From contig NW_026852429.1 of NCBI RefSeq assembly GCF_026571515.1, forward strand, positions 1-64,000: DNA of 64,000 nucleotides, read 5' to 3'. Made by a program: the position numbers and the translations under genes. The stretch comes from Ruditapes philippinarum. Taxonomy: Eukaryota. How positions within the stretch are numbered: the first letter of the stretch is position 1; each line of letters opens with the position of its first letter. Under the pieces are notes generated by a model. It saw only the letters and a program-made list of their open reading frames with translations, was not told where the DNA came from and made no database searches. Positions 4,408 to 51,000 of this stretch are shown here, one piece after another.

Positions 4408-7400
4408 CAACATTTGTCATTACACAAAAGGTAGTGAAAACATTTTTATGAAACTTAAAATATGCATAGATGGCAGAATGGAGATGATACAAATTATTTT
4501 AATCTTTATTCTACGGAGTATTTATGGAGCTTTCCTACGCACCAAGCGTTGGCAATCTCGTCAATATTTCTGATTCAAGTTTCACGCTTTTCACAATAAA
4601 TTATTTATTTCATAAGGTACTAACTTCAAACTTCAAATATATGTTTCTAATCATCAACCACATCATATGTGACAAGTTTTACAATCTAGCACAAAATATC
4701 ATAATTACCTCCCTTGAACTGAGAATTTTCATGACAAATATGATATTTTTTAGAACTTCTTTATTTCTTTATGTATCTACTTCACACTTCATATATATCT
4801 GTCTTACTGTATTATCACTCAAATAATTTTGGAGAAGGTACTGTAGATGGACTATTTTCAGACTTATGTCTCCCTTGATCTTGAATTTTTTAGAACTATA
4901 GATTTTTTCTATAAATATATCTTACTTGAATTTCTTCATTTCTTTTAGCATTTTCTTCAAACTCCCACATCATAATAATATGACAATGGTTATAAATCTA
5001 GTGTATTGTCTCCTCTGTTAATGATATTTTATTGAAACTTTATATTTTTTACATGAATAGAGACTATTAAGAGAAAGTGCACAGATTTACAAATGTAAAA
5101 TAGACTATAACTTTTTCTACCGATAAAACTTACATAAATTTGCAGTTATAAATTTAGTTTTACAGGTGATAAAGATACATATCCTCAATTATACTGATAC
5201 AACATAGATTTATTGACTGATATAAGTCATATTTGGTATTTAGATTTATACAATGGGCGTTCCTGTATTTGTGGTGTTAAGACACTAATGAAAAAGATAT
5301 TTTAACTGTCCTTGTACAGCCTCCATTTGTTGGTAAATGTGTGGTGCAAATATGCAGCTTTTGGGAGCATAATTTGCCCTCAATGATATTTTTTGAAACT
5401 CATGTTAGTTAGAAATTATATCAAACTCATGATTAATATGTTGTATTTTACTTGTTTCTTAGGTGAGTGTACCAGGGCAACCATGATGCTCTTGTTTAAT
5501 CAGTATTCTCCTTTAATTCATAAGTCATATAACTATGCATCTTCAGGCCAACACTTCCAAAGTGTAAAGAATTGTCAACATTAAAATCTCTAATCTTTCT
5601 GATAGTGTTATAACAATGCCTACTGAAAATTTGTTTTTTAAGTGGTGTAACCATTACTGTTGACATTACTTGATATTGCAATCGGTTGTCGAACCTAGCC
5701 AGTTTGATAATTTTTTAGACATTTTACTTTAAAATATTTCTAACCAGGATATTCATACTCGATAACAACTGTAATAACAATCTTATTCCCAAAAGTTAAA
5801 TAAGAACTAATGATTTTGATAAATGGTCTTGTCGCTGTTTAGGAATATTATTTAATCTTCTTAAGATTTTGAGTTTCTGCTATATGCGTATACCATGTTT
5901 CGTTAAGTTTAATGCATAAAAATTCTTGGCGTTTAACGTTGAATCGTAAACTGAATGAAACGATTTTAAAACTGCTGGAAAAGATTTAACCCTTGAAGTA
6001 AATTAAAAATTATTTTTTAATGTTAAATATGGGCAGGGGGCCCAAAAAAGATGAAAGTTTTTTTAAAATTTTAAAAGTCTTTTAAGAATTATTTCAAAAT
6101 AATTAAATGGGGAAAAATTTAAATTTAAAACAATTTAACAACCATCCGTATATTTTCTGTAAAAAAAACAATTTTTCAAAATTCAGCAAACTTTAAAATG
6201 TAAGGGACAGTAATAAAAGGAAAAGAAACCCTGGAACATTTAATTTTCCCAAAGAACAAATAAATTTCATTTAATAGTTTTTCATTTTTTCCAAAATACT
6301 TTAATGCCCACAAATCCCCGCTGGGCCTTTTTACAGAATCTCGGGTTTCTTTATTTTTTTTATTTTAAAAATTTCTGGTTTAAATTTTTTTCAATTCCCA
6401 AACGCCGATTTTTTCAAAATTCAAAATTCTCTAAATTGGCCCCCGTGGTTCGGGGCGAATTTTCAGAAATTTCCCAAAAATCTTTTAGTCCAAATTTTTG
6501 AAAAATTGATTTGTTAAAAATGACCAACAAAAATGCCGAGTTCGCCAAAAATTAAAAAAAGGTTCCTTTGAATAAAATGGGATTGTTCTCTTAAACCCAA
6601 CCCAAGAAACCAAAAGATGCCAGAACCCCTTTTAATGTTTATTTTAATTTTTTTCCCAAATTTTTCCCTTCGTTAAAAAGATTGAAATATCATTATTTTA
6701 AAAAATTTTTTTTATTAACGCTTTTTAATTTTTTTAATTACTGTAAAAAACTTACTTTTTCTTTCTTCCCCTTTTTTTAATTTTTTTAAGTATTTTTTTA
6801 AAAAATCTGGCTAAGGGATTCTTAACCCCTTTCCCTTTTTAAAAATTTTTTCAAATTTTTCCCGTTTCTTGGGGTTCTGTTTATGTTGTTTTTTTTTTTT
6901 TAAATTTTAAAGTTTTTAAAAAGGGTTACAAGGATTAAAAAAAGGCCCTGAAAAACAATTTTTTTTTTTTAAACCCCGAAAAAGTTTAAATTTTTTTGAA
7001 TCTTTGTTTTAAAAAATTTTTAACTATATGCTTTTTTTTTCATAAAAATTTTTCCCGATGGATTTAAATTTTTTTTCTCCCTGCTTTAAAAAATTTTTTT
7101 GACCCAAAAAAGGGAATAGTTGAAATTTTATTTATAAAATTTTTAATTTAAAAATTTTGGCCATTTTTTTAAAAGTTAAACCTTTTAAACCCAAAAGGGT
7201 TTAAAAGAAATTTTTTAAGTTTTTTGGGTTAAAAAAAGGAAATTAAACCCATTATTCATTCGCAAAATTTTCAACCTTTTTCAAAATTGGGAAAGACTTT
7301 TTTCAAACTTAACCCAAATTTTTCTTTGGAAATTTCTTCAACTTTTGCTATTGTTTTTCAAAAAAATTTGGAAACTGTTAAATTTTAAACATTTTGTTAT

Positions 7401-7849
7401 TTTTTGGAAAACCTTTTTTTGATTCAACGGAAAATTTTTTAGCCCTCAGGGCTTTCGGGAAATTTTTCAAAAAAAAACAGAACCCGTGTTTTTAAGCACA
7501 TGTGGGGACACAATTGGGAAAAATTTTTGAAAATATTTTTTTTTGGGGGAATTTTTCCCCTTTGTCTTTTTTAAATTTTGCTGGTAAATTATTTTTTTAA
7601 ATTTAACATTTTTTTAAAAAAGTCTTTAAGCTTTAAATAAAAAATTTTAAAATTTTTTAAATGAAAGGAAAATTTTTGCTTTTGATTTTACTTTAAATAA
7701 ACTCAGTTATTTTTGTCAAACCCAAAATTTTATTCCCCAAATTCATGCTTGATCCTATAATACATGCATATGTTTGGTGAAAAATTATCTGTTTTAAAAT
7801 CTTTTTTTGCCCCATAAAAAATTTGTTCCCCTTCATATGGGTTTAAGGT

Positions 7850-9920
7850 AAAATTTTTGTTGTACGCTGTAAAACCCTTTTGTTTAAACCATTTGATCCC
7901 CCCCGATTTTTTTGCCCTTAGTCAAAACTGCAATTTTTTCCCCTTGATATTTTTAATAGGGATTCCTGTTTACATCTATACCAAAACCGTAGTAAGAAAA
8001 AAGGAAAAAACCCCTTTTAAAGTTTTTAGTAAATTTTTCTTTTAAACCTTTGATTTTCCCCTTTTAAAAAAGTTTTGAATTTTTTTCTTAATTTTTAGTA
8101 TAAAAACCCCTTTTTAAATTGTTTTATCCCCCCGGCCCTCAATTGATTCCCTTTTTAAATTTTTTGATAGTATATTTCCAAATTGTAAACTATTTTATCC
8201 CCCAAGCCCCAAAATTTTTTTTCCTCTTTGTTTTGCTTTTTAAAAAAATGTTTCTGTTTTTTAAATTCATATGAATTCCCCCAACCCCCCATCTTTAAAT
8301 TTAATATTTAAATTTTTTAAAAAAAATAATTCCCGTTTTACATCTGTATGATTCCTTGTAAAACCCCTTTTTTTTCCCCGTTATATGTTTGAAAAAGTAT
8401 GGTTTTCTGTTTACATCTTTTTTTGATCCCCTTGTTTCCCTTTGATCCCCCCTTATTTTAAAAGTATTTTTTTTTTTTGGGACACTGTCTTTATCCCTGT
8501 CCCCCCCTTTGATTTCCCCTTTTTTTTTTTTTGATAGTATTTCTCAGTTTTTAAAATTTTTTGATCCCCAAGTAAAATCAAAATTTTTTAAACTTCTTTA
8601 TGGCTTTATATAGTTTTTGGGTTTTAAATTCTAGATCCCCTTTTCAATCAATTGATCTCCTCTTAAAAATTTTTTGGGAAAAAAGAAAAATTTTTATCCG
8701 TTGTACATTTTGTAGATTTTCCTTTTAAAACCCATTTGATTCCCCTTTTTTAGTTTGATAAATTTTAATTTCTGATTGTACTTTATTTTTTTAAATTTGT
8801 CCTTTCATTTTTATCCCTTTAAAATTATTAAAAAGTATAGTTCCCTTTTTTACAACTGTCTGTCCCCTCGTCTTTTATTCGATCCCCCTTTTTTATTTTG
8901 ATAGTTTTCTCAGTTGTAAAAATTTTTTGAAAACCCCAAATTTCTAATTTTTATCCTCTTTGTATCCCTTTTAAAAATTTAAAGTTTTCTGTTGTAAAAT
9001 TTAAAATGATCCCCCATCCATTAATTGATTCTTCCCTCTTAAATTTTTTTAGAAAAATTCTCCGTTGTAACCCCTTTTATGATCTCCTTGTAAACCCATT
9101 TGATTTCCCCGTTATATGTTTGGGTAGTATTTTTCTCTGTTTTACTTAAAATTTTTCCCTTTGTCCCCTTCATTTTATTTCTTAATTTTTTTATAAATAT
9201 ATTTTTCCCCTTTTTACTCTGTTGATCCCCCCTCCCCATTGGGTTCCCCCTTTTTTATTTTTTATAAATATAAATTTTATTTTACATTTTTTTGAAACCC
9301 CAAAATACATAATTTTTATCCCACCTTTTTTTGATTTTTATAAGTTTTTTGTTGTAAAAATTTATATTTTCGATTTACTTCCATTAAAATTTATTCCCCC
9401 TTAAATTTTTGAATTTGAATTTTTCTCCGGTTTACACTTGTTGAAACTTTCCCTTTTACACCCCCCTTTGATTCCCCGTTATTAAAAGTTTGGGTAGAAG
9501 TTTTTGTTGTACATCTGTTTTATCCCTAGTCCTTTTTTATTGATTTCCCCTCTTAATTTTTTAAATAAACTTTTCCCTTTTTACATCCCGTCTGATCCCT
9601 CGTCATCATTCGATCCCTTTTTTTTTTTGGGTAAGTAAAAATTCTCAGTTGTAAAAATTATTTTAAAACCCCCAAATAATCAATTTTATCCTCCTCTTGT
9701 ATGCTTTTTATAAAGTTGTTTTGTTGGGAATTCATATTTTTCCCTTAAACCCTTAATTGATCTTTGGGAAAAATTTTGAAAAATTTTTCCCTTGTTTGTA
9801 TGGGTTTCCCCTTTTACCCATTTTGATTCCTGTTATATTTTTTGATAGTATGTTCTCTGTTGTACATTATTTGGGTCCCCTTTTCCTTCCCCTTTGGGTC
9901 CCCCTAAATTTTTTGGTATA
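7850..9920. repeat. Satellite array A: ~61-bp monomer in a ~365-bp higher-order repeat (~5 copies)
   Basis: Diagnostic monomers recur at ~8196/8562/8928/9292/9665 and ~8341/8706/9071/9435. Confidence 0.7.
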
Positions 9921-9989
9921 TTTTTCTTTAAAATTTTTAAAAACTGGTTTTTACTTTTATCTGATAATTTTTCAAGAAAACTTTTAAAA

Positions 9990-12900
9990 AAGTTTAAAAA
10001 AATTTTAAAGGGCCCCCGGTCAAACTTGTGATTCCTTATAATTTTTTAATGAATTTGTTTTATTTGTACATCAAGGGGGTTTTTTCCCTTTTTAAATTTT
10101 TGTGATCACCGATATCTGTTCCAAAAAAAAACATAGTATATGTTTTAAAAATCGATGACCCCTTGTCAAAGTGATCCCCCTTAAATCTTTCAATGAAAAT
10201 TAAAAGAAATGTTAAAATTAGATGATCCCCTGGTCCCGCTTCCTTATCCCCCCATATTTGTTCCAAAAAATGAAAGAATAAAATGTAAGGTAAAATTTAC
10301 CCCCTTGTCATTTTCTGTGATTTCCCCTTTAATTTTTATTTAAATGGATACTTTAAAAAAAGTAAATTTAAATTTTAGGGGTTGAACCCCCTTTTTACCC
10401 TTTTGGGGATCTCCCTGTAAAAGTTTATAATTAAAAAAGAATTTTAAAAATTTTTTAGATGTTTTTTCAAATAGAATGTGTTTCATTTTAAAAGATCCCT
10501 GGCAACCCATTAAAATATAAAATAATATTGTTCCTAATAAAAAAAAAATGTACATGGGAGAATGAATTTTCTCTTCCCACCCTTTTTTACCCCTTTTTTT
10601 CTTTTTTAATAAAAAATAGTAAAAAGTACATAACAGTAAAAAACCGAAAATCCCTTTGTATCTTACGTATTTCCTTTTGAAAATTTTTCAAAAAAATTCC
10701 TAGATATTAAAGTTTTAAACTTTAAATGATCCCTGTTGGGAGCTTAAAAATTTCCCATTTATTCCCGCCCAAAAATATGAAAGATATAAAGTAAAAAAAA
10801 CCCAAATTTAACCCCCGGGAAAGGCCCCAAGTGATTTTAAATTTCGTCAATGGATACTTTTTAGTAAATGTAAAAAAGTTATCAATTGTCATTTTTCGTG
10901 ATTTCCATTAAAATACCGGGTTCCCCTAAATTTGAAAGAGTTAAAAGTCAATTAGATGATCCCTGGTCATTTTGTGATCCCTTTTATTGTTAATTTAATG
11001 TTTTTAGAATATGCAATTAGGGTGAACCCCATTTGGGCATTTTAGAGATTCCCCCATATATTTTTAAATTTTAATCTTTAAAAACGTTTACATCAAAGAA
11101 TCCCTGGGTTTATGCTTACGTTTTATCCCCCATATTGTTCAAAAAGAAATTTTTATAAAACCGTAGGGACATCTAGACGATCCCCCTGGTCATCTTACGT
11201 GATCACCTTAATTAATTTTTTTTTTCAATTTTAAAAATAATTTAAAAATATGTTTAAAGATTAATGATCCCCCTGGTTCAAAAACAACGTTTTTCCCTTT
11301 ATTAATTCCCCTTTATAATAAAAAAAGTAGAAAATGTAAAATTTTGAGATCCCTTTTATTAACGTGGATGGGGACCTTTATTTTTTGTTACAATGATAAA
11401 ATTTTTAAAAATTGGGGCATATAAAATGATTTCCCCTGGTCTTTTTAAAAATACCCTATAAAACTGTTCATTTAAAAAGAAAAAAATAAAAATTTTTACT
11501 GAGGAAAGAATCCCCTGCTCAAACTCCCTGATCCCTTTATTTTTGTTAAAGAACTTAAAAATTTTTAATGTAAATTTGACGCCCCCTTTGGAAAATTTTA
11601 TGATTCTTAGATTTTTTTTAAAGAATACTATGGGTTTTAAATTTAAAAAAGAATGAATTCCCCTGGGGCCCTTTTAATTTTTCCATTTTAAAAGCTCCAA
11701 AAAAGAAAACAAATAAATACAATCTTAAAATTTCCCCTGGGTTTTTAACTGAAACCCCTTTAAATTTTTGTTCAAAGGGATATAAATTTAAGGGAAATTT
11801 TAAATATTTTAACCCGTTTACATCTTTTGGGGATTTTTATAAAACCGTTCCAATTTAATTTGAAAGGTATAAATTGGGAATTTGACCCCTTTGGCATTTT
11901 AAGTGACCCCCTTTTATTCTTTTTAATTGATTCTTACAGTTAATTCATATTAATGAAAATTCCCTTTTTCAAATTTTCAAGATCCCCCTTTTTTCTATCA
12001 AAAAGAAACTATGATATGTAAAATTTGATGTCCCCCTTTTCTTACCCTTATCCCCTTTTTAAACCCCTTCCCTAATAAGAAAGAGTTTTTATGGGCCCTT
12101 TTGATCTGGCCTTTGGGCAGCTTCATTTATAACCAATATGTGTTTTTATAAAAGCCAAAAAAATGTACATGTAAGATGATCCCCCGTCATTTTCCCTGAC
12201 CACCCCTTTTTTTTTGTTCAATGGAATTTTAATTATAAGTTAATTTTAGTTATCCCCCCTTTTCATTCTTTTTCGTGATCTCCCTAAAAAACTTTCCCTA
12301 AATTTGAAAAAGTAGATAAAAATGAGAAAAATTCCCCCGGTATCTTTCTGATCCCGAAAATCTGTTAAAGAATTTTATACTTTAAATGCAAAATTTTCGA
12401 CGTCCCCCGGGCTCTTACGTGATCCCCTTAAAATTTTTTCTTTCAATAAAAAATAAAAGCATTTTAAAATTAGATAACCCCCCCGGGATCTTACTGATCC
12501 CTTTTATTGTTAATTAAAATATAGTATAAAAGTAATTTAGAAAACCCACTGGTCATTTTTTTAACGTTTAAAACCCCCTTAAAATCTTTTAAAATTTTAA
12601 AAGTAGGTATAAAAGTACATTTTAAGATTTTTTCCTGGTCAAAATTACGTTACATCTGATATTTTCAAAGAAAAATATAAGTTACTTTTTAAATTCTAGA
12701 TACCACTTTTTCATATTACGTTTTTTATCCTATTTCTTTTTTCAAATTATTACTAAATTTTGTGTTTAAATATAGATGACCCCCGGTGCTTAAATGATAC
12801 CCATATATTGTTCCGTAATAAGAAAAAATTAAATTTTCATGTAAGATGAAAACCTTTGTTTATCTAAAGTGTTTGGTTTTCCCCTTTTTTTCTGTTTAAT

Positions 12901-13640
12901 GAATATTATAGTAAAGTCCAATAATGAAACCCCGGCTGTTAAAGATACCCAAAAAATTTTGTTTCCCTAATAAGAAAAAAAAACGTAAAAGTAGGGTTCC
13001 CCCGCTCATTCACTGAACCCAAATTTATTTTTTTTCAAAAGAAATGCATAAGGGAATGTAAATATAGAAGATCCCTTTGTCATTTTTCGGGTTTCCCCTT
13101 TTTTTCTATTTAATGGATAAATATAAAGTAAAATTTAAAAAATGGTTATTCCCTTTGGGGATCTTTTGGGGAATTTATTATAAACCCCTCAAAAATTAAA
13201 AAAGTATTGTAAATGTAGATGATCCCCCGGCCCCTTTTGTTTTCAAATTTAAATTTCTCAATGAATTTTAATTTGTATATGTACAATTTTAAATGCACCG
13301 GTATCTTAAAGTATCCCCTTTATATCGTTCAAGAAAATTCCCTTTTAAAATGATTTGCACATCTAACGATCCCTGGTCATCTTAAAGTGATTCCCCCTTT
13401 TTTTCTGATCAAAAAAAATATAGAATGAAAATTTTGATTTATTCCTGGAAAACTTACGTTTATTCCTTTTCCCCTTTCCCTTAAAAAAGAAAAAGGACGT
13501 GTAATCTGATGATGGCCCCGGTCACCCCCTGTCCAAAAGATACCCCCTTTTCAATTGAAAATTATTTTTTTGGTGTAAAAAGTAGATGATTTCCAAAAGG
13601 GCATTTAAATAACTGGGCCCTGCTGTTTTTGTTCAAAGAA
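9990..13640. repeat. Satellite array B: ~70-bp monomer, approx. CATCTAGATGATCCCCTGGTCATCTTACGTGATCCCCTATATCTGTTCAATGAATACTATAGTATATGTA
   Basis: tagatgatcccc-like anchors recur every ~67-85 bp (e.g. 10219, 10952, 11174, 12471, 12773, 13216, 13582). The consensus was estimated by eye. Confidence 0.75.
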
Positions 13641-15914
13641 AAGTATGTATAATTTCATGGGGGATTACCGGGGGTTTTGAGGTTGTATGTTTTAATGAAA
13701 ATATAGTTTCTGGTTTTTTTTAATTATTTTAAATATTAATTTTTTCAAAATTTAAAAAAGTATTACATTTATATGTATAATTTAGGATGTTCCTTTTTTT
13801 TCTCTAACCTTTTTAAAAATCTAATAGGGTTAAATATGCTGATTTAAAAATTTGGCATTTTGAATGAAAGACCATTTTGCAAGAATTTAAAAACTTTTAA
13901 AGCCTTTTTTTTTTTTTTATAAGAATTTTGTTAAAAATTTTTTAGGGGGATTTAAACATATGCAAATTAATAAGTGAAAATCAAACATTTTAAAGGGTTT
14001 TTAGCTTTTTTAAAAACATGATGATAACGGTTTTTAAAAAAATTACGTTTCTTTTTTAAAAGGGGGGGCTTTAAAGGAAAAATTTTACGCTTACTCCAAT
14101 CCCTTTTTCCCTTTTTCCCATGCAAATGACAAAAATATCCCGGGAAAAATGAATAACCCAGATAAAATTTTTTTAAACGTCCCCAAAAAGACCACAGGTA
14201 AAAATAGGGGTTTGGGGTTTTTTTGGCCCCGTTTGCTAAGGAGGGGCCATTTTTTTTTGCAAAAATCCAATTTAAAACTTCCCGTTTTTTTTTGGTTTGG
14301 GTTTTTTTTTTAAATAACCAAATTTATCTGGGGGCATTTTGCCTGCCCGGAATCCTCACCCCTATGGAAAAAATAATTAATGTCCCTTTTTTACCCTGAC
14401 TGGGGGGCTACCTGTTTTAAATTTACATACAGACTACACTTTAAAGGAAAAGGGAAAAAATGATTAATAAAATTCGCCTTCAACCCCGGCGGGGTTTTAA
14501 ATTCAAAAGGAAAATCCCATTTTTTTATTTGTACAAAAAGATTGATCAAACAAACCCCTACGATGACCCCCGGGGGCCCTTTTCCGGGTGGTCTTGTTTG
14601 GTGAAATATTTTAAAGGGGTATGCAGTATGTTCTGGGAAGTTTAAAACCCTGCCTTGGGCGATCTTTCCTTTTTATATTTGGTTTAATTTTTGATTTCTT
14701 TAATTTTTTTTGAAAATGTCACCTTTGTTTTCCCTTTTTTCAAAATTTGAAAGAACATTCATTTTTATGAACATTATTTTTTTTGTTTTGTTTTTTTTTC
14801 TTTAAAAAAGAACGACAGACGGAGAGGGCAAATAAAAGGGAAAATTATAGGGTTTTTTAAATTTTTTTCACATTTGATTAAATTTGGGCTCGTGGTTTAT
14901 TTGGAAAAACAAAAAAATGCACTGTTTTTGTATATGTTTAATAATTATTTCATAAAAGGGTAATTTTTTAAATAAAATTTCGCTCATTAAATGACAAAAA
15001 TTATTTTAAAAATTTCCCCAATAAAAGGGTGAAAAATTGTGCTAAAGGGGAAAAAGTTCGTATGGGGGAAACCCGGGTTTTTTGGGCTGGCGCAAAGGGA
15101 AAAAGAGCCCTGGATGAAAGACCCGGAAAAGTCAATTTGATTAGCATACCCCGTTTATTGGGGATAGAAACGATATAGGCTCAAACCCGCCCGTAAATCC
15201 TGCCCCCCCCCTTGCTAAGCTGTATCAACGCAGTCGGGGGATATATGGAAAGGGGGAGTGGAAAAGTTTCCGAAAAAAGCCCCTTTACATTAAATTTTGT
15301 TCCGTTAGGAATGAGAAGTACCAGGAAAAATTGGGGGTTTTGTAACTATTTATGAAGTTAAAGTTATTTTAAAAAGAAATAATTTTACTAGTATAATTTT
15401 AAAAGGCCCCCAACCCCCAATGTTGTAATTTTTGCCTTTTTTGAAAATCAAATGTACATTTTTCGGTTTTTACTTTAAATCTTTGGTATTTAATTTTATA
15501 AAAATTAAATTTGTTTTTTTGAAAAATTTAAAAAAACACAAAAATAAAAAAAATGAAAACAACATGGGTTACACAATAAAAATTTTTTTTTTTCTTCCCT
15601 TTTAAAAAAGGGTTTTTAAAATAAAATTTTAATGGTTTACTGGCTAACCCTTTTAATGGGCCAAAATTTTTGCGTTCTAACTTTATACAAAAAACATTGT
15701 ATTTTTTTTAAACCAGGGAAAATATTGGAAACAAAGATAAGTACACATTTTCCAGGGGGGGCTCCAGAGGTTTTTGGGGCTATTTTTTAGCGAAAAAAAT
15801 TTGGTAAAAAGTCGTTGTTAAAAAATTTTATTTGTGGGAAAAAATTCCTGGAATTATTTTGGGGGGAGAGTCTATTTTGATGTTTACCCTAAATTTAAAT
15901 CTTTGGGGAAAGTA

Positions 15915-16752
15915 TCAAAAAATGGAAGTTTTTTTTGCGTTCCTTGAGTACAAATTGTTCATGTTTTCTCGCTCTGCATGACGATGACTTTCAGATTGAT
16001 TATCGCCAGACCTGAAAACATTAAAACCGTCAAAATGGACTTGATTGTTTGGATCTGACTGGTTAACTTCGTGACTGCAATCACCTGACGATCGAAGTTC
16101 TCGGTGTTCTTTTATTTTATTTGATGTACCGATGTAAGAGACGTTTTGATCTTCTGTGTGAACTGAAAGTCGATTTGCATTTTTGTTTAAATATTCGGTA
16201 TCGCGAGATATATTTTCACGTTCAAATACTGATGCAGTTATCCGTTTTTTGATTGGTTTTGGTATTCTTCCGGATTCTTTTACAGGTGACGTCTTTTTAG
16301 ATTTCTTAGGCGATTTACCTTGTTGTTGTTTTAAACTTTTTCCACTTTTTAGTTCTTTAAATGTGTTTATTGTCGTTTTGTGAGAGCCAATATTTGTAAA
16401 ATCTCCGAGAACCCTTCTTTTCTTTGGAATGTTCATTATTGAAGAATCTTTGACCGTATTAACCAAACCATCAACACGTTTGGCATTTGTACCATTTTCG
16501 TTCGGTTCATGATTCATGTCCGTGTTTTCGATATCCTGCATGGGTGAATGTAAACCCCGACCATCTGTTGAATGTCTTTCACTTATTTGAATAATTTTAG
16601 CATCGCTGTTATCAAATCGCTCATGAGATAATTGAGTTTGAAGCGTCGATTTTGCTTGGTTTTCATTGAATGGAACATATGATACTCTACTATCCATTAC
16701 ACAGGGAATTTCACTACCTCCAGTATTAGATAGCGCACTTTGTAATACGTTT
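15915..16752 (-). CDS. HES paralogue A exon 3, continuation after a +1 frameshift
   Basis: Frame open from ~16752 (NVLQSALSNTGGSEIPCVMDSRV...), overlapping the upstream ORF end; similar N/S/E-rich composition. Confidence 0.7.
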
Positions 16753-19313
16753 CATATTTGTATATATGTCATTTTCCTCCTTTGATTCTTGAACATTTAG
16801 CGCCCCTACGGCTTCGTTTTCAGTTCTTTGAACAATCGGCCAAAGTATAAAAGCTGGATTGTCCCCCTCGTTTGGCAAACTTTCATGCACTTTGTTGGCC
16901 TCTCCATGAATACTGAATAATCCATCATGCAACGCTGTATACATAGGATAATGATAATTTTTATTGTTATTTACAACATTTCCCAACACTGTGTATGAAG
17001 CATCTCCGTCAGTAACTGAGTTCAGAATTTCACTTTGCGGAGCGAGGTATCCGGTACAAGATGTTTCGGTAACATTTTTGGTATTCAGACTATGTTCCAT
17101 GTTACACACATTGTTCTGTAACATTGCGTTTGAGTAAGCATACGTATTAGTGTCAACATTACACATTTCATTTGTACTTATGGAATTGACCTCGACGTTT
17201 TCATTACGTTCATTTATACCGGGATCTATATCTTGCCGTTTACTTTTATTACGGAAATCGTCAGTTGACGCAACACTCACGAGATGTTCCAATAGCCTCG
17301 TTTTGATACTGTCGTCTGGAACATCAGTATCAGGTAAAGCACGCATGCATTCAGCCACGTGCGAGGTGCACTCATTGAACCCTGATGTATACTGTAAACC
17401 ATCAAAGACGATGGCATTGTTACCAGGCATTAACTGAGAATTGGCGGGAGATGTGCTCTGGAAGTGTTGCATCTTATGTATGTATTCCACGGTCATTTCT
17501 AGAATATCTGCTTTCTCCAATTTTGACATCATTGTGGACTGAAGGTAAAGAACATGTAGTTTAGAACTTAAGATAACATAGTTGCAATAAACATGTTAAA
17601 AGTAATGTACATGCAGAAAGAAAAAATCTTATTTTCGGCTGCTCATTCTGTATACTTATTTACGATAAGCCTTCGTAAATTTAACTGGTACGAATTATTA
17701 ACATTACATAATAAAGTAGCGGACCAGATTAAGTCATAAAAGGTGTCTATTGAGAGAGTGAATATATCTTGCGGGATACTTTTCTTTTCATTTTTATGAA
17801 ATACTTGATATAAAACGAGTTAGCGGCGGACAAAAAGAACAGGCTTAGCACTGCTGTTACTACTTAGGTCTTTGTAGATAGGTAGTCGCTTATTACAGAT
17901 ATACCCAAAGTGATCTACAGTTGTACATGGAGGTATGTTCAAACTGACTGAAAGTGTTTTTCTTTTCATATGCATACTGCATAAGATAGAAAAATGAACA
18001 CGAGATATACGTGCACAACTCACCTCATTGTTAATACTTTGTAAGACTATTGATTTGAGCTGCAGAAGAGCATCGTTTATTCGTGCACGTCTTTTTCTCT
18101 CTGCGAGTGGTTTGTCAACCTGAAGCAGAAAAATGTAAAAATAATTAAAGCCTGTATATTATATGAGCCGCGTCACGACAAAACCAACATAATGGGTTTG
18201 CGACCAGCATGGATCCAGACCAGCCTGCGCGGATGCGCAGGCTGGTCTGGATCCATGCCGGTCGCAAACGCACTATGTTGGCTTTGTCATGACGCGACTC
18301 ATATGTTTTATTAAAACGTCGCTTAATCGGCATCAAACGATACCCACAGTCTCGGATGGTATTCTACCATGGTTGGCTCTGCCTGTTTAATGTGAACTTC
18401 TCACAATGAAAGTAAAACTTCAACAAAACGGGGTTGTAGAGGTCAAAGAAGTACACTTTATTCATCACTACTAAATAAGTAATAAAGGCCAGTCAGTGGA
18501 ATGTACCAATCTCTAGCTTTCACCGTCAACTTTATATTAGTACATTTAACAGATTTTTAAATTATTTCTTTAATACTTTTTAAACATCTAAATTGCCATT
18601 TTGCTAGGACTTTATATTAGTACATTAACTTGGACAATGGTCACTGGTAAATCACCCAAATTCTCAAATGTAAGAAATACTATCTTGTATTTTGAAGGAA
18701 AACAAAACAAACAAAAAAACGAAAAAGCTTTGTTCAATAAAACTAATTTTATTAAGAAAAATTACGCATTGAATGAATGTTTAAAAAGCAGAGTTGAAAT
18801 ATAAAGTTTCATCTTTGATTCATTTACAATGAAATTGTCTTTCTATAACTTTGNNNNNNNNNNNNNNNNNNNNNNNNNNNNNNNNNNNNNNNNNNNNNNN
18901 NNNNNNNNNNNNNNNNNNNNNNNNNNNNNNNNNNNNNNNNNNNNNNNNNNNNNNNNNNNNNNNNNNNNNNNNNNNNNNNNNNNNNNNNNNNNNNNNNNNN
19001 NNNNNNNNNNNNNNNNNNNNNNNNNNNNNNNNNNNNNNNNNNNNNNNNNNNNNTCACTCCATCCACCATCATTATCATCATCATCACCATCATCATCACC
19101 TCATTTCTATTTTAAACCTACCACCACCACCACCAAAATTACATAATTATCAGTGGTCGGTTGATACATCAAACACAATATATCATTTAACAACAATCTG
19201 TTCTTCTAAGATGCATTAAACTAAATCATTTATGTATTTTTGTTTAAACAAAATTTTGTAAGAAAATGTCGCTGACTTACCTTAGCTTTAGCTTTTCTCT
19301 TGCCATGATCCAT
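15915..19313 (-). CDS. HES: Divergent long HES/hairy-family bHLH-Orange transcription factor (paralogue A), 3 exons, frameshifted in this assembly
   Basis: Exon 1 19313-19281 (MDHGKRKAKAK); exon 2 18119-18024 (96 nt, VDKPLAERKRRARINDALLQLKSIVLQSINNE); exon 3 from 17538 ([20 protein letters not shown]... Orange YTSGFNECTSHVAECM...IKTRLLEHL) to a stop at 16726, continuing in the +1 frame to 15915. Confidence 0.88.
16726..17538 (-). CDS. HES: HES paralogue A exon 3, 5' part (helix 2 + Orange + N-rich region)
   Basis: cttcag| acceptor; [12 protein letters not shown]; 270 codons to TAA. Confidence 0.9.
   Translation of the reverse strand, partial: STMMSKLEKADILEMTVEYIHKMQHFQSTSPANSQLMPGNNAIVFDGLQYTSGFNECTSHVAECMRALPDTDVPDDSIKTRLLEHLVSVASTDDFRNKSKRQDIDPGINERNENVEVNSISTNEMCNVDTNTYAYSNAMLQNNVCNMEHSLNTKNVTETSCTGYLAPQSEILNSVTDGDASYTVLGNVVNNNKNYHYPMYTALHDGLFSIHGEANKVHESLPNEGDNPAFILWPIVQRTENEAVGALNVQESKEENDIYTNMKRITKCAI
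18024..18119 (-). CDS. HES: HES paralogue A exon 2 (basic region + helix 1)
   Basis: cttcag| acceptor, |gtgagt donor, 96 nt as in the second HES gene. Confidence 0.92.
18161..18304. mobile_element. Palindromic MITE (internally deleted copy) in HES-A intron 1
   Basis: Near-perfect 144-bp fold-back atatgagccgcgtcacgacaaaacc...cagcctgcgc-ggat-gcgcaggctg...gacgcgactcatat; same family as 42146-42374. Confidence 0.85.
18854..19053. other. Assembly gap (200 N) in HES-A intron 1
   Basis: N run. Confidence 1.
19054..19134 (+). repeat. (CAT)n/(CAC)n microsatellite
   Basis: catcatcatcaccatcatcatcacc...caccaccaccacc adjoining the gap. Confidence 0.85.
19281..19313 (-). CDS. HES: HES paralogue A exon 1
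   Basis: ATG at 19313, AAG|gtaagt donor, phase 0, basic residues. Confidence 0.8.
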
Positions 19314-25262: not shown

Positions 25263-28023
25263 TCACCGATTCTCTCTGTTCATAGCTATATACCTTGAAT
25301 ATAATTGCATTTAATTCTTCGTTTCTCCGTTTAATTTTGATTGAAATCAAAATCAAAATGATGTGTTAAAATCACCATTTAAAGATTTATACAGTTCGTA
25401 CTTGTAAATACATGCATGCACTAGTAAATATACAATTACAATATCAGTTATGTACAGTATATATAACGCAATTTAAATTTTGAGTTAAATGTGGCTTCAT
25501 TTGAAATTAATTTCTTCGCGCGAGGAGGGCGGAGGTCGGTATCTCGGGTGAACGAAATGAGTGATGGCCTTAACGTGTTTCTGTACTTTCCATATCACTC
25601 ACACGTTTAATTGTTTAATTGATCATATGCAGCAGACGATACGACCATTGCCGCGTGATTTCGAAATAATTTATTGTTATTTGATGTTATTTATCTGTAA
25701 TTTACATAGATTTACTCCATAGACAAATAGATATATAATTTATACAGGAGACAACTTGAACGCTAAAATGCGGGGTTTTTTTGGTCCTAATTGTTTCATG
25801 ATTACCTCCCTTTATTTTCATAGGCTCAATGACTACAAGGGAAATAAGTTTATCATAGCCTGATTTTTAATAAATATTTTGATTACCTCCCTTAAACTAT
25901 TGCAGCTGGAAAAATCTCATGAAGATAGTTCTAATTGAAAGACCCTGATAAAACTCAATAATCAAAATCAAGATGAACATTGTTAATGTAGATTGGATTG
26001 ATAATGGATAGAGAATGAATGCCATGTAACGGAAGTTGAGAGTTCTTTCTTAAATTAAACCGGAAATACTAGGTAACCGCTTTTGGAACCATTTATATTA
26101 TAAAATAACAAGTATACAATCAATCCCATGTGAGGTGTATTGAGTTAAATATGTACTGTGCGCGATTAAGATAAAAATGTACTAGTAATCTGAAAGAAGG
26201 TACAAAGTACAAAAGTAGCGTGCACGAGAAAAATATTACCTCAACTAGCTAGCTCGGATAGGTAGGCAAATAAACTCTCAAAATAAAATACCATTTCAAA
26301 TTTCTTTTACGAAATCAATAACAGTATCTAATACTAATATACATTTATATGTCCGTAAGAGATCGAACTCTGTGATCGATAATCGATTGCTTTTACACAG
26401 AATCAGAATGCAAAAATCAAAACAAAACAAAAAAGCATAAACTCCAAAACACGTTACTCACATATGAGGAAAATGATATATTTGCAAGTTATTTTGCAAC
26501 GTTGCTATTTAAGTAATTGCGTGTTACCATTGCACGCGAAACCTGGTTATAAAAGTGCATACATGTACATTTAAGTTCTACATTGTAACATTTAGATTTT
26601 TCCCACACTTTAACTCCTCTCATCTCACCCTGCCTTCATTGCAAAAATTGGAACCTAATTATCAAAATATTCGGAAAAGTAGCCGCAATCATTCGATTTA
26701 ATTCATTTTACGTGGTAATTTCTCTCTAAAGCGCCAGGGTGCCTCTTTATTTACAATGAAAACACAACTAACATTCGCACTCATGTCCACGGTCCTTACA
26801 ACTGCTAAAAAGGAGGAGCTTTCCCACAGGTCGAAAGTTTTTGAAAATGCAACAAGGTGGAATGAAATTTGTGCACGTGGCCATAAAACATAAAAGACCG
26901 CTAGTGATTATATTAAGATGGGAACACCATTAGCAAACGTTAACAATTACAAATTCTCATGAAGCGAACTGATAGTAAACATCTGTTTTTTAAACAGGAC
27001 TATGGGAATTTTTAAGACGCATGCGTGAAAATATGCACGTGACTAAATTGATTGCATTCCATTGGTTGAATAAGTTTATTGTTTTTGAATTCGCGCGCTA
27101 ACCGCGTGCTCACCGTGAGAAACGCTCTCATATATTTCTTTTGACAAAATTGTTATCGAAAACGCGTGGCCAGCAAGAAACCGAAGAGATAATGTCAAAA
27201 GAAATTCTTATCAGTTTTTCGGAAACAAGATTTCTGTTCCTGTAACTGGCTGATTAAGGCGTGCGAAACTATTCAATTCATTTTTGTCTCATGAAATTTT
27301 TAATTAATATCTTACTGCACTATCTGCAGCTAGATCTATATTTCAAATAACATAAAAAAGATCGGCAGCAGATCAACTGAAATATTGTGATGAACTGTTA
27401 CGTCTAAATGCTCGATGCACAATCTTGAATTGTTTCCAGTGTAGATTTTTGTCATACTTGTGCACTATAGTAAACAGGTGCAAGTTATTTTATTCTTGAT
27501 GATCAAGGGGTGATTATTTTATGATAATTTGACCAGTATTGGCGTGGCAAATGTGCCGAGCGCCTGTGTAAATTTTGGTTTCATTTGTACCAAACCCTTG
27601 CAAAACTTAACTTAATATCACTAAACTTATTTAGATAAAACTTTCTATCAATGTATTTAGAGCTAGTAAATTTAATATTTTTCCCTCCCTTTAAAACTTG
27701 TCAGTTTTAAACCTTTCATTTATACATAGCGTCTAAGTATAAATAACATATTGTTTAATATAAAAAATAAATGCACTCTATGTTTAAGTGCGTATTATGC
27801 ACATTATTTTTATAAAAAGATATTTTATAGTTCATGTAAAGATAAATCATGTTGACATTCGTGATCGTTGTATAGTAGTAGTCTCCCTTCGACACTGTCG
27901 TCTGTTTAGCATATCAGCTCGCTGATTGGTTAGTGTAGTAAGTTGAGCAATTTTCATTGGCTGAATACGAACTATGATGTCAATTGCCAATATATACACT
28001 TACAACAACGATTACTAATGTCT

Positions 28024-28710: not shown

Positions 28711-31548
28711 CTACCAAAGCATCTCCCGGAGATAATAGCTATATTATGTAAATACGGAAATAAATGATTGCTTTTTTGTGAAGACGTAGATGTGATCAGA
28801 GACTACATCTCAAACGATCATCAATAATTATCCGAAGACTTACGGAAAGGTCCGAAAAGTTCCGATTGTCTCCATCGATTCTGATTGCCTGAGATTCTGA
28901 TTGGCTACACATTATGTGTTAGACCACGGATTTATATTAAATGTCAATTAAAGTCCGTGGTTAGACCTGTGATCAACATTGAAAATAATAATTGTCATTT
29001 TCGACAATATTGGTTTGTGTCGCCATATTTGTGCGATTGGTTTAATAATTATGTCGGGCATAGAAAATCAAAACTTCAGATTGAATACTCATTCGATGCC
29101 ATGTCTTACAATGAAAATCTTTGAGAAAATCAAGTGTGCCGTCCCACAGTACAACTGATGAATTCCACTACACGCGCGCGCGTGCATACAACGTACAATC
29201 TTCGTTAATCAAATCTCGCGAGAGCACAGGTGATTCGTGGCAATTCTCATAATTATAAATTGAAATTAATTCATTCACCGCCTTTATTCAATTAAAACTA
29301 GATGTTCTGTTCTGTCGATGTAACGGCATCTCATTTCTGTGGCATCTTTATTACATGTAACGTGCCCCTGTCATAACAAATGGCAGGAAATAAAATCACA
29401 ACCTGTCGCGCGCGGATGTCAACTGAATATAACGCTACAGTTTGTTAAAAGACGCTGACTGAGTGATTTTTGAGACCAAGTATTAAATGAATCGTCTTAA
29501 ATTCGCGACGGTTCTCCCTCCTTTGGCACGTGAGGTTTTTTTCTGTATTTTTTTTTCATACATGGGGGCGGAACGAAGCTCAGCGTTATAAAGATGAGAG
29601 TAATATTTGATGTAGCTGCCATGGCTATTTAGTTTGGTCAAGAGGAGATTGTTGGTGTTTCATTTTTTCTACTTGTAAAATTCTGAAGAGTTGCCATATA
29701 GCACTGACAGTGTCGGTGTCACTTTATTCTCAACTAATTAAAAAGCACACACACGCACACAAGAAGAGAAAAAACAACAACAACAAAAATACAACAACAA
29801 ACAATAAAACAACAACAACAATACCCCCCTCATTAACCCCCCCCCCCCTCATTAAAAATATCTTAACAACAAAAACGCGCTCTAATAAACTGGCATATCA
29901 TACAACGTCTTTCAACTGCAATGGACTTATCCAAACTACAAATGTATTGAAAGGTTTGAAATTTCTGCGGTAATCATAAAATCTGAACCTATAAATTCTT
30001 ACATAAGTAATGTGAACTCGTAAATATTCTTTATATAAAGAGAAATTCATCACTGAGGACATCTGATGTTTTTAAACCTTTCATAAGACACCATTTTCTT
30101 TACATTTACGTTAATGGTGCATTCGTTTCAATCATTTATCCTAATTTTGAAATTATAATGTTTTTCCCACAATTCACAACTGATGGCGTGTGTCTACCAG
30201 CTGTGGGGTATAGTGACTAAACTCGAAATGTTCACCGTGAGAAAATGGTATGAAAACCACCCGTATTATTTCAAATGATTTCAAATAACCGCTGTCAGAT
30301 GATTTAATCTCGCCGCAGATATTATGGTCATAGTCGCAATGCAAACATATCGCTGTAAGAAAGTATTGTCATGAAACGGGTAGGAAATGACTCAATTCAT
30401 TCACTGTATAAGAGAAAATAGTTAAACGGGTAGAAAAAGTCGTGGGAACTGATTACACTTTGAACTATAAACGACATGTACATATTTTCACAAAATATTT
30501 CCGATTTTTTTGTCAATTATTCAATAAAACCGAAAGACGAACGGATTTTGTATTGGCGAATCAAAAAAGGGAAAAAAAGATCACCATGAAAAATGTTTTT
30601 TATGGGTTTAGATAATTTCTTTTGAAGTAATCGAAGTTATTAATAATTGTCAAATGTGAAATGTGGTTTAAAATTAATATAGTTATTTAAAAAAGGGTGT
30701 CTAAAATATATTCATTGTTGATTTATCTAATTACATTTCTTGAATTCTTTACGGCGAGATTTGGTCATTAGTTTTTTTAATAAAATTGAAATTAAATGAA
30801 AAAAAAATCTGAACATTTCAGACTAAATCATAATCATTTTTATTCCGTGCCCATTGACGGTTAACTTAGTTAGGGTGTCTACCTCTCAACACTGAGCTAT
30901 TGGGTTGGAATCCATCTTGGGGTACGGCCATATTTATCATAATTATTTCACTTAAAAACTAACTGGTTGTCTTGAAGAAATTAATTAAAATTGTAAAAAC
31001 TTAGTTTAAATAATAACCTGAGGTTGATTATAGTTTCTAACTAAACAGCATGTGGGATACAGGAGGGGACCGAGGACTGGGAGGTATAGGAGAGGGAGAG
31101 AGTTAAATAGCTGCGTTGTGGGGAACAACGTGTCAGCAAATGATCTCTGAACGGCGTATCAGGTGGCAAACAACATTAAGGCCAGTTCTTGATCGCCAAA
31201 TTCTTCAAGTGTTTGTCGAGGGCTGTAAAAGAGATTTTAGAAGATTTAAATTGTTTAATCTCTCAGTTTCTCACACACGTTCAAAATAACCATGCATGGG
31301 AAAAGTAAACAAATCGTAAGGTAAATGGATCACATGACCCTTTATGTAAATAAGATAAACCGCCACGTGACCTAATGTACACAAAACAATATTATATACA
31401 CGTGCAGGTATAAATACCTATACGTTTTTATATATTTAGTGTCAGGTAAGGTATTTCCTCTTATTATCTAAGTGAAGAAAAAATATTATAATTAGTTTCT
31501 TTATTTCAAACGGATGATTAAATTCTAATTGATATAAATCTATAACTC

Positions 31549-47600: not shown

Positions 47601-47809
47601 TGTACTCATTTGTCCCGGACTAGGATCAACATACATGTGTTATGATAAGACCATAATTAATAAATAAATAACTAAACTAATAAATTGAAAGATTATTAGG
47701 CCCAGTCCAGCTTAAATGTACATTGTATGCTAAAAACTTATTTAAGACTATACCAGACTTGTGAAACAAGTCCTTCGCTCGAGCACCCTGCAATTGTTCG
47801 GTTCGAGTT

Positions 47810-47920
47810 GGATTCCTGAAACTAACCAATATGGTGTCATATGAGTTAACATGGTCGTGACCGGGGTAAAACTCGAACTCACTCAGTGTGGAGTGACAGT
47901 CATCTTAACCACTAGGCTCC
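47810..47920 (-). mobile_element. Degenerate tRNA-head SINE fragment
   Basis: Homologous to 25140-25262. Confidence 0.5.
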
Positions 47921-49035
47921 CCTAAAAAATAAAATTTGACATGCACGTGTGCAATCATTGCTGACTATCTGCAGAAAATATTTCTATTGTCCCAATAGGG
48001 TATTCGCTTTGCTTCTTATACGGAAAACCCCTGATACAGTGGGAATAGAGCACATTTCGGTTCAGTTTTAATCTATTTACTGTAGCTGTAAACGGATTTG
48101 GGTGGGTTTTTTCGCTCGTGGCCTGGGGTCCGACTTGTCATCTGAGATTCGAGTCATGCTATTAATCGCCGACCATAAAGCACAATTTTAAATGACCAGC
48201 ATGGCTATCTCAATTCGAGTTTTGGAACTGGTTGGTCCGTGATGTAACTGACCAAGATAAGTATTAGAGCGTTCATTGACGCAGACGATAACTTTCGAGT
48301 AAAATGATACTTTTCTTTGGAAATTAAATTTTTCTACTTTTATCCTTCTGTGAGTTACGTAGTATATTCGACAATATATGTTCAAATTGAATTCGTGTTT
48401 AAAATACCATAGGTTAAAACAACATTGTTACTTAAAATACACAATGAAATCATTATATGCACGAAATAACGGCTCTAAAATAGACTTAACCAGTTTTTCT
48501 CCCAAAAGAAAACTTAAGATTTTCCCCGGAATTTCTTTGAAAATAACATTACAATATTTTCTAAAATATTGTTATAGACGAAATGATAATTACATTAATG
48601 ACAATTAATACCTGAATATGAAGGTCAAGGTTATTTTTCTGGAATTTTGGACAGGATGTACTTGCACCAAAATAAACACGATATAGGGTTTTCATATTTT
48701 CTATTTCGCAACAATCGTAAAAAACAAACATAATAAACATAACATTTTAAACACAAGTAATGCACTTTTTTTACATATTAATCAATAATAATGGTGTAAA
48801 AGTTTATCTCCAGGACAAAGCACTAAAATGTTTGTAAATTGTATTATAACCTCGTGTACATTAACATTGTGTGGTTATATAATGAAAATATGAGGCAGTC
48901 ATGTCAAAAGACATTCTGCACGAGTCTATTGTCTTCCAATGGATATGAGAGATTGCAATGTCAAACCATTTTAATAACGAATTTGGAAGCAATTAAAAAC
49001 TTTTTGTATAATCAATTAATATTAAGTCCAGAAGT

Positions 49036-49884
49036 CTACCAAGGCCGCCAAACATCTTCAACTTTTAATGGACTCGGTGTCCTACCAAATTTAACAAGTC
49101 CCTGTAAATTAATGTCCATTTGAGACGCTGTATATGACGTCATTTCATGTGATGAGGGTGAACAAGATGGCGACGACGAAGTATCTGAAATGTCTGAGTT
49201 CGATACTTGAGAAAACGCGGAAGAATCGTAAGCTTTCATGCTTGCTTTTGTTCTTGGTGGAGATCTCGAGGTATATAGTGGTACAGCTTGGTTACAAACC
49301 GGAGCTGAGGTGGAATGAACATTTTGTTGCATCGGCTGAGATTGTCCGAGGTACACCGCAACAGCGGACGGAGAGTTTGTGTTGGGCACTATTTGAAATG
49401 AACCACACAGCTGAGCAGTATTTCCTGCTGTACGTTGTGGATGCTGTTGTGAGTTTTGTCCCTGATTGTACATGTTTGAAACGTTTAAGTTTTGTACTTG
49501 CTGAAGCACTAATGGCGATGTATGAACGGCTGGCATAAGAAGACAACCATTTTGAGCACTATGTAGTCCTTGCTGATTTGATTGGTGAGGAATTTGAACA
49601 TTAAGCGGTTGCTGACATTGTTCGGATGTCTGACTATTTAACTGAGTTACAACGTTGCCTAAATGGCTCATCAGTCTATTTCTGGTTTCCCCCTCGACGC
49701 CTTGAACTGATCCAAGGTACCTCATGACCTCGTTCGCACATTCGTTGAACCCGGCCTTGTATTTGGTGACGACAGTCGGGTCGCAGGTCATAGCTTGTGA
49801 TACCTGTTGACGCTGAAGCTGACGTAAGTGTTTTACCGTCATTTCCAGGATATCCGCTTTCTCAAGCTTTGAGTACTGGTTTGT
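49036..49884 (-). CDS. HES: HES paralogue B exon 3
   Basis: tttcag| acceptor; helix 2, Orange domain, WRPW-TAG. Confidence 0.97.
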   Translation of the reverse strand, partial: TNQYSKLEKADILEMTVKHLRQLQRQQVSQAMTCDPTVVTKYKAGFNECANEVMRYLGSVQGVEGETRNRLMSHLGNVVTQLNSQTSEQCQQPLNVQIPHQSNQQGLHSAQNGCLLMPAVHTSPLVLQQVQNLNVSNMYNQGQNSQQHPQRTAGNTAQLCGSFQIVPNTNSPSAVAVYLGQSQPMQQNVHSTSAPVCNQAVPLYTSRSPPRTKASMKAYDSSAFSQVSNSDISDTSSSPSCSPSSHEMTSYTASQMDINLQGLVKFGRTPSPLKVEDVWRPW

Positions 49885-50810
49885 CTGAAAAATAGAAATA
49901 AGAAATTCATAAATAACTAGAAATACATTAACCTTAAACCTTTAAAGTACACGTTTTAGTAAAAATAAAATGACTAAATTAATAATGCGATTCTTAAATG
50001 TCACGGTATAAAAAGATGTAATTATATTTCGTTGTATTTGAATATACAATTATACAATACGTTAAGATAGTATCGCGACATATCCAATTATCCGCATTTC
50101 AACTGCCATTTATCAAAGAGAGCTCTCGTGGGAAAATCTTTCTAAAATCTCAGAGAGAAGACACCATGACGTGACCTATGGCATATTATCTTCTCTTTAT
50201 CTCAGAAGTGAAACATTCACGTATATACTAAAGAAACCTGTTGCTACAGAAGTTAAAAGCGTCCAGTTTGCACGGCGTTCTAGCCAGGTCATTAATACTG
50301 CTTAAGTTTACACGTTTGAATAATTTAAATTGATCTTTTAATTAATTATTAACAATTAATTCGATTAATTAACCCAAATCTTCTTCAACAAGTTACTAAA
50401 ATATGTTCATGTAATCATATCTATGTAAACAACTTACATCTTTTCTCATCGCTTGAAGCACCAACGTCTTTAGCTGTGTCAGGCAGTTGTTAATGCGTGC
50501 CCTTCTTTTCTTTTCCATAAACGGTTTATTACTCTAAAATAAGAAACAGATATTATATTTACAATTTTGTTAAAAAGAATGTTAAATGACATCAATATTC
50601 AATTAAATATCGTCAACTTTTATCAATCAGTTAAGTTAATAAAGAGTACAAGCATGTGATGTTTCCGAATTTATTATCATTTTTTATCATAATTAAAAAA
50701 GTAAAATATGTTGTGATATTATTTAAACATACCCTTTTATAAGCAGAATCTTTTTTCTCCATTTTGTTTGGTGAATTCATAATCCTATTTTCGTTGACAG
50801 TGTCAGACAT
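49036..50810 (-). CDS. HES: Canonical HES/hairy-family bHLH-Orange-WRPW repressor (HES1/4-like, paralogue B), 340 aa, 3 exons
   Basis: Exon 1 50810-50733 ([26 protein letters not shown]); exon 2 50533-50438 (96 nt, [32 protein letters not shown]); exon 3 49884-49036 ([20 protein letters not shown]...[16 protein letters not shown]...RLMSHL...EDVWRPW*). All introns GT-AG, phase 0. Confidence 0.97.
50438..50533 (-). CDS. HES: HES paralogue B exon 2
   Basis: ttttag| acceptor, |gtaagt donor, [13 protein letters not shown]. Confidence 0.96.
50733..50810 (-). CDS. HES: HES paralogue B exon 1
   Basis: ATG at 50810; AGG|gtatgt donor. Confidence 0.88.
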
Positions 50811-50916
50811 AGCACTTTAAAGCAACTTGTTTAATTGTACAATATTCAATGTGTCAGTGTGTGAACGGTTAGAAAACTGAAGTAAATCTAAATCTACAAG
50901 TGGTTTTAGATTTGTA

Positions 50917-50922
50917 TTTATA
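50917..50922 (-). promoter_or_regulatory. TATA box of HES-B
   Basis: TATAAA(TA) on the minus strand, ~110 bp upstream of the ATG. Confidence 0.7.
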
Positions 50923-50948
50923 ACCTCGGGCAGACGACATAAGTTCGC

Positions 50949-50980
50949 CATGTGAAGGAATTTGATCTGTCTTTCCCACG
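50949..50980 (-). promoter_or_regulatory. Su(H)/CSL paired site (SPS)
   Basis: Minus strand CGTGGGAA-AGACAGATCAAATTCC(16 nt)-TTCACATG, head-to-head, just upstream of the TATA box. Confidence 0.8.
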
Positions 50981-51000
50981 CTTACAATCCATCACTCGTA

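Follow-up and report, generated by a model that had tools for sequence, protein, structure and literature searches.

HES-A, one of two HES genes in the window (the whole 64,000-nucleotide stretch of Ruditapes philippinarum DNA analysed here), is on sequence comparison a fast-evolving clam-lineage HES copy whose long tail carries two short conserved islands, a D-box that is a candidate APC/C degron and a PIKKR motif of the class that recruits NCoR/SMRT. We consider it fairly probable that HES-A is a HES repressor combining a WRPW end with what are likely an NCoR motif and an APC/C degron, and that its repression would be lifted at mitotic exit and in G1, much as for ID2. In hand for this reading are a single open frame in other animals, one clade, HES anatomy and the conservation of both islands. 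The parts of the gene are as follows.

19281..19313, minus strand: HES-A exon 1, start codon, 11 codons (GT..AG introns; joined model equals RefSeq P0121)
18024..18119, minus strand: HES-A exon 2, basic region with its proline, and helix 1 (Pfam HLH, E=5.6e-06; basic-region comparison)
15752..17538, minus strand: HES-A exon 3, helix 2, Orange and a long low-complexity tail to the WRPW end (extent inferred)
17269..17394, minus strand: Orange domain (PF07527, 26.3 bits against a cut-off of 25.3)
15752..15772, minus strand: error-laden remnant NLWSPPW of the C-terminal NVWRPW, in a homopolymer-noisy region

All four structural features compared place HES-A in the HES family. PF00010 scores over its cut-off in exons 2 and 3, confirming the bHLH; the basic region, KP-x-x-E-x-x-RRARIN, aligns with those of HES1 and Deadpan, so that the proline of class VI b(Pro)HLH proteins is present; the Orange domain is there, with a marginal score; and NVWRPW ends P0123 and five other orthologues, with only the corrupted remnant left in the window. 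The delimitation of exon 3 was based on the Pfam HLH and Hairy_orange profiles and on tblastn with P0123 and P0001. The proline bHLH, Orange and the C-terminal WRPW are shared with HES/Hairy repressors such as HES1, Hairy and Deadpan, as are the two introns within the bHLH-coding part and the tandem linkage with another HES gene. A search of solved structures with the clade profile matched HES1 chain 2mh3 (E=2.3e-06), and matches for the clade were confined to the bHLH and Orange parts. The full-length protein would have about 637 aa, and its tail is likely disordered: in the AlphaFold2 model of the Mactra orthologue (P0002) the bHLH and Orange helices are folded and residues 135-454 nearly all have a pLDDT <50, which, with an alignment of only six rows, lends weak support to disorder. 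The surroundings of the D-box consist of 74-78% polar, charged or small residues, with 3-11 lysines downstream, between the D-box and PIKKR.

The earlier note on this DNA had placed the motifs in the HES-A tail, which holds for the sequence and fails for the frame as assembled. The motif ORF (15918-16751) and the ORF of the bHLH-Orange exon (16729-17595) lie in different frames, the latter ending at a stop at 16726-16728. Joining 19281-19313, 18024-18119 and 16726-17538 through GT..AG introns yields a 313-aa protein identical to P0121 (RefSeq XP_060608077.1, Ruditapes philippinarum), a model with neither tail nor WRPW. The break coincides with the following feature.

16750..16752, no strand assigned: run of three T, two T in other animals; probable frameshift truncating the model at 313 aa (contigs X1 and X5; P0123)

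Four runs were compared over 15600-18400, two of DNA type (X1, X5) and two of RNA (X21, X23). One base is absent at 16750 in the contigs of both DNA runs covering the site (2/2, from different studies), and dropping one T there restores the open frame. P0123, a JGI/IMG record, is uninterrupted across the break and ends in NVWRPW. Since the X1 and X5 contigs lack this base and P0123 reads through, an error of assembly is the most likely cause of the frame break. Given the one-base difference, there is no need to postulate an unannotated intron at this point, an option that was also considered. The earlier note had named a downstream ORF outside the translated mRNA as grounds for rejecting its proposal; with the frame open in three independent sources (X1, X5, P0123) and ending in WRPW, an untranslated ORF is unlikely.

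That the frameshift is real in the sequenced animal, or the tail untranslated, leaving the motif without a role there, is in our view very improbable. Both the window and P0121 end before the tail, and RNA depth over the exons was low (<5 in X21, with introns similar, and essentially 0 in X23); in X21 and X23 there was no spliced joint among those listed, no read across the junction and no coverage at 16728-16915. X1 is perhaps the assembled sample itself and contigs lose rare variants, so a rare null allele may exist. Against this stand the open frame in both covering DNA runs and in P0123, five other orthologues that are continuous to WRPW, and the error-laden state of the adjoining 10 kb, where between about 6000 and 15950 runs of at least four identical bases hold 34-47% of the sequence versus 5-19% elsewhere in the window.

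Several further observations concern the assembly. The 10 kb or so at 6000-15950 are homopolymer-inflated and apparently unpolished, and the 3' end of HES-A is destroyed there. P0123 and the window agree at 109 of 116 residues ahead of the break (94% identity) and at 219 of 278 beyond it, in the tail (15918-16751, only 79%); it may be a very divergent allele, a recent duplicate or the copy of a close species. Eight substitutions in the patch 16750-16801 are common to the X1 and X5 contigs, and the window is closer to P0123 within this patch and closer to X1 downstream, so the assembly has the look of two haplotypes joined together, the frameshift falling where one gives way to the other. At 18138-18325, in intron 1 of HES-A, lies a repeat of very high copy number that is palindromic in part and is probably a small mobile element; it reached a read depth >10,000 and absorbed most of the mapped reads.

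Orthologues were gathered by three kinds of search. The tail as query found one protein among 1565 candidates, P0001 of Mercenaria (729 aa); a bHLH search, of which 120 of 234 matches were listed, includes Mactra P0002 and the Logan sequences P0004 and P0019; and P0121, P0123 and Logan P0124 came from the best 150 of 2269 matches of a profile run against 1.84 billion representatives. In a tree of the bHLH-Orange region (59 rows, P0148 left out, 33 of 133 new proteins taken as background), the six placeable HES-A-type sequences form one clade with 100/100 support and a stem of 2.34 changes per column, a length that sets HES-A apart from other HES/Hairy repressors, and HES-B falls among ordinary HES proteins. 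P0123 is unplaceable there because it lacks the bHLH. Identity of the helix 2-Orange core within the clade ranges from 0.35 to 0.70. Mercenaria and Mactra represent two superfamilies of Venerida, to which all named clade members belong, and among the matches listed no oyster, mussel, scallop, unionid or gastropod HES carried the islands. With the island region alone as query only the query itself was returned, two metagenome scans for the island pattern gave 108 and 592 matches with zero confirmed, and the ESM Atlas held no usable match for the island.

Two side observations arose from these searches. In P0001 an array of ~13-residue repeats has expanded in the stretch from Orange to the D-box (residues about 170-430), and the protein bears the automatic name 'uro-adherence factor A-like'. 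Long gastropod HES proteins (P0005, P0010, P0025, P0026, P0205) form a separate clade (100/99) with a conserved LKK[HR]LL island of their own near the C-terminus, which may be a corepressor motif of the PLKKR/HKKF kind that arose independently.

The tail features on which the proposal turns are listed below.

16392..16418, minus strand: D-box RRVLGDFTN, candidate APC/C degron (conserved island in 6/6)
16413..16427, minus strand: basic cluster PKKRR, candidate NLS, overlapping the D-box (PKKR[RK] in 5/6 orthologues)
16302..16313, minus strand: CDK consensus SPKK, partly conserved (3/6 orthologues)
16278..16289, minus strand: CDK consensus SPVK, not conserved (1/6 orthologues)
16236..16262, minus strand: second conserved island PKPIKKRIT, with its core PIKKR at 16242-16256 (NCoR/SMRT-recruiting PLKKR class)

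The minus strand of 16278-16427 translates as the earlier note wrote it, with the D-box and the overlapping PKKRR where they had been described. The corresponding 9-mers are RRVLGDFTN in P0123, RKVLGNHTN in P0001, RKVLANYTN in P0004, RKVFGDISN in P0019 and RKVLGDISN in both P0002 and P0124. By column, R1, V3, S/T8 and N9 are kept in 6/6, L4 and G5 in 5/6, D6 in 4/6 and I7 in 3/6; the exceptions include F at position 4 (P0019), N at position 6 (2/6) and F, H or Y at position 7 (3/6). The check proposed earlier, whether the motif stands out among orthologues, came out in its favour: mean pairwise identity over positions 1-9 is 0.67 versus 0.10 in the upstream and 0.08 in the downstream flank (6 sequences), where anchoring on the motif inflates the first figure and ungapped windows deflate the flanks. 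Free alignment recovers the same islands, though the N-terminal part of P0123 is misplaced there. Between the window and P0123, 0/25 island residues differ, versus 52/235 outside (p=0.003).

In shuffled tails (20,000 for each of 6 tails) RxxLxxxxN arises in 5-10% and Rxx[LF]x[DEN]xxN in 1.3-3.9%, and the latter occurs in the tail of 2/232 complete HES proteins outside the clade. At this shuffle rate a lone D-box match counts for little, and the case therefore rests on conservation. The positions kept are those explained by the coactivator structure, where the available part of one source gives the preferences as G5, D/E6, V/I/L7, S8, N9 and P at -1 (PMC3690534); P at -1 is found in Mactra. Compared with the consensus peptide RLPLGDISN (PMC12401543, seen in part), P0002 and P0124 match at 7/9 positions, P0019 at 6/9, the window at 5/9, P0001 of Mercenaria at 4/9 and P0004 at 3/9. 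In the window R1, L4, G5, D6, T8 and N9 fit, and V3 and F7 are off-consensus. Across the clade the departures from preference are the invariant V3, where A, P or S is favoured, and a basic residue at position 2, where a small one is favoured. A KEN box is absent from 6/6 HES-A-type proteins.

It is possible, though we think it unlikely, that both islands are nuclear import signals only, i.e., importin-alpha sites, and that the resemblance to a D-box merely results from an NLS with R-K-V-L at its end. PKKR[RK]V is found in 5/6 sequences and KKR in 6/6, the tail is long and basic, and in yeast Cdc5 and Cdc20, RxxL motifs turned out to belong to an NLS rather than to act as degrons (PMC4342022). 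The same source, as far as its available text goes, also has minimal Cdh1 degrons in yeast that require an adjoining NLS, so both the degron and the NLS-only readings have precedent. An NLS leaves the conserved G/A5, D/N6 and S/T8 and the invariant N9 unexplained. Moreover, Mactra has SSKP in place of the PKK cluster and retains the 9-mer, so that in one lineage D-box and import signal are uncoupled, which argues for the reading of this island as a degron.

The two S-P-x-K sites that the earlier note had counted as part of the module are present, and their conservation fails, at 3/6 and 1/6. Full CDK sites are absent from P0002 and P0124, and shuffled tails contain one by chance in 12-40%, so that the sites are at chance level. 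They were rejected as part of the core module and are probably lineage-limited extras outside it.

Cyclin-docking sites belong to the RxL-type class. The D-box island could bind another partner, for example as a docking site of this class that feeds the nearby CDK sites, or could have diverged from the motif that ordinary HES proteins have in mid-tail; we hold this to be improbable. Its core, basic-x-hydrophobic-hydrophobic-G (position 4 being F in P0019), would suit another partner, and SP/TP sites lie nearby in 4/6; V and not L stands at the docking position, however, two orthologues are without a full CDK site, and N9 is invariant. As to a mid-tail origin, an R-x-x-x-G-D-hydrophobic motif is present in ordinary HES tails, and its BLOSUM62 score to the D-box consensus is as high. 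A mid-tail profile built from 102 seeds reached at least 10 bits in 125/268 proteins and matched 0/8 clade proteins, but it also misses HES-B and is thus not very sensitive. Descent of the D-box from this motif found no support and was set aside. As judged from its sequence, the D-box is a candidate degron gained independently of that in ID proteins.

The second island, whose PIKKR core lies 22 bases beyond the end of the span described earlier, had been missed there. It lies 29-58 residues C-terminal of the D-box in the orthologues and is the stronger of the two islands, with an identity of 0.88 versus 0.15 and 0.11 in its flanks. The core is PIKKR in 4/6, PLKKR in 1/6 and PFKKR in 1/6, hence P[ILF]KKR in 6/6. 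The strict pattern P[ILFVM]KK[RKWH], drawn up after five of the motifs were known, occurs in 6/253 fetched proteins, all in the clade, and in 0 of the other 247; the class arises in 0.06-0.46% of shuffled tails (20,000 for each of 6 tails). The accessible parts of two sources describe PLKKR as a repressor motif pulling down the Smrter (NCoR/SMRT) complex, with PIKKR cited in MeCP2 (PMC9890238), and TBLR1-binding motifs with the sequences PIKKRKT in MeCP2 and PLKKWKS in SETD5 (PMC13385800). By this resemblance PIKKR likely recruits NCoR/SMRT. HES-A is akin to the PLKKR/PIKKR proteins MeCP2, SETD5 and fly Snail in having the motif in a likely disordered repressor region, and differs from them in combining it with WRPW and a D-box; the residue after the R of the motif is I or L in the clade versus K in MeCP2 and SETD5. 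PIKKR is also a plain basic cluster, and a second NLS is possible.

From these elements we propose the following course of events. HES-A would dimerise and bind DNA, the basic cluster overlapping the D-box would serve nuclear import, and WRPW is predicted to recruit Groucho/TLE, with PIKKR likely recruiting NCoR/SMRT-HDAC3 in addition, through TBL1. The D-box would likely be bound by an APC/C coactivator, Cdh1 or Cdc20; Cdh1 is favoured by analogy, and the sequence data do not separate the two. Lysines near the D-box would then be ubiquitylated and HES-A destroyed at mitotic exit and in G1, and, on the model of ID2, repression may be cleared each time a cell divides or when it leaves the cycle.

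A variant that we regard as having a low probability is that the D-box binds coactivators without cell-cycle-gated destruction, as a competitor or a tether, or for post-mitotic clearing only. The available texts offer precedents: pseudosubstrate D-boxes exist, as in Acm1 (PMC3690534), degradation of ID2 is maximal at completed neuronal differentiation (PMC9018835), and WRPW proteins are already turned over by TLE-bound SCF-FBXL14 (PMC13308096). What speaks against it is that the motif is a single degron-like one, unaccompanied by a KEN box, and that many lysines adjoin it.

The second HES gene provides a comparison within the same window.

49036..50810, minus strand: HES-B, an ordinary 340-aa HES without D-box or PIKKR (exons 50733-50810, 50438-50533 and 49036-49884)

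The earlier contrast between the two tails stands in that HES-B has neither RxxLxxxxN nor a basic cluster there, whereas the count of a single SPxK was too low: full [ST]Px[KR] sites occur at residues 13, 266 and 329 of HES-B, and two of these three are SPxK. Su(H) sites follow the pattern YGTGRGAA. The window contains 20 of these versus 6.0 expected, a number reached in 0/100 shuffles. The 3 kb upstream contain 0 for HES-A and 3 for HES-B, and the 'Notch-pathway' label attached to HES-A in the earlier note is thus unsupported. Direct control by Notch through Su(H) is common in the HES family without being a requirement for membership. HES-A has one YGTGRGAA in intron 1 and clusters 7-11 kb upstream, and the looser RTGGGAA occurs four times in its upstream 3 kb. 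Clusters of Su(H) type were observed between and around both HES genes, at 26600-27121, 30164-30448 and 46318-54970, and by their sequence these are candidate Notch-responsive enhancers. Caution against assuming Notch control of HES genes has been voiced in the literature (PMC4172395, in the part available).

A bolder form of the proposal, which we offer tentatively and think rather less likely than otherwise, is that this venerid/mactrid HES duplicate is a cell-cycle-clocked, Notch-independent double repressor (Groucho/TLE and NCoR/SMRT-HDAC3) that builds up in S/G2 and is lost through APC/C at every mitotic exit. If so, its targets would fire only in G1 daughters, making a division counter from a HES protein.

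Relative to known HES/Hairy repressors, HES-A stands out by its D-box and PIKKR islands, which none of the other HES proteins examined carries, as well as by having no detected mid-tail motif and by the lack of strict Su(H) sites in the 3 kb upstream. Leech Hro-hes reportedly shows cell-cycle-dependent expression, in work ascribed to Song et al. 2004 (PMID 15081366), and would resemble HES-A, by its title only, as a lophotrochozoan HES tied to the cell cycle. Neither PMC10970066 nor PMC5764573, in the text available, adds to this. HES expansion and clustering are known in molluscs (PMC5381572, PMC8166818, both available in part). Neither an APC/C degron nor an NCoR motif was described for any HES in the titles and abstract openings searched, a coverage outside which most subscription journals lie.

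The closest functional parallel is with ID1, ID2 and ID4, where, in the portions of the sources available, APC/C-Cdh1 recognises a D-box that follows the HLH and that couples transcription to mitotic exit (PMC5267474, PMC9018835). Like these, HES-A belongs to the HLH-class inhibitors of differentiation and has its D-box on the C-terminal side of the HLH; ID proteins, in contrast, are without basic region, Orange and WRPW and act by sequestration, whereas HES-A is predicted to bind DNA. Known turnover of HES proteins, which are short-lived, runs through SCF-FBXL14 coupled to WRPW and TLE (PMC13308096). This route needs TLE binding, for which HES-A, keeping WRPW, would be eligible, and in the available text of the same source neither 'APC' nor 'cell cycle' occurs. 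The D-box in HES-A would add a second, cell-cycle-timed turnover route beside SCF-FBXL14.

With the reference gene model truncated and the Mercenaria orthologue carrying an unrelated automatic name, the HES-A subfamily is hidden from annotation-based surveys. If the motifs work, these clams would provide a dated, lineage-limited case in which a developmental repressor gained cell-cycle-timed destruction together with a second corepressor, and did so via two short motifs, convergent on the logic of ID2.
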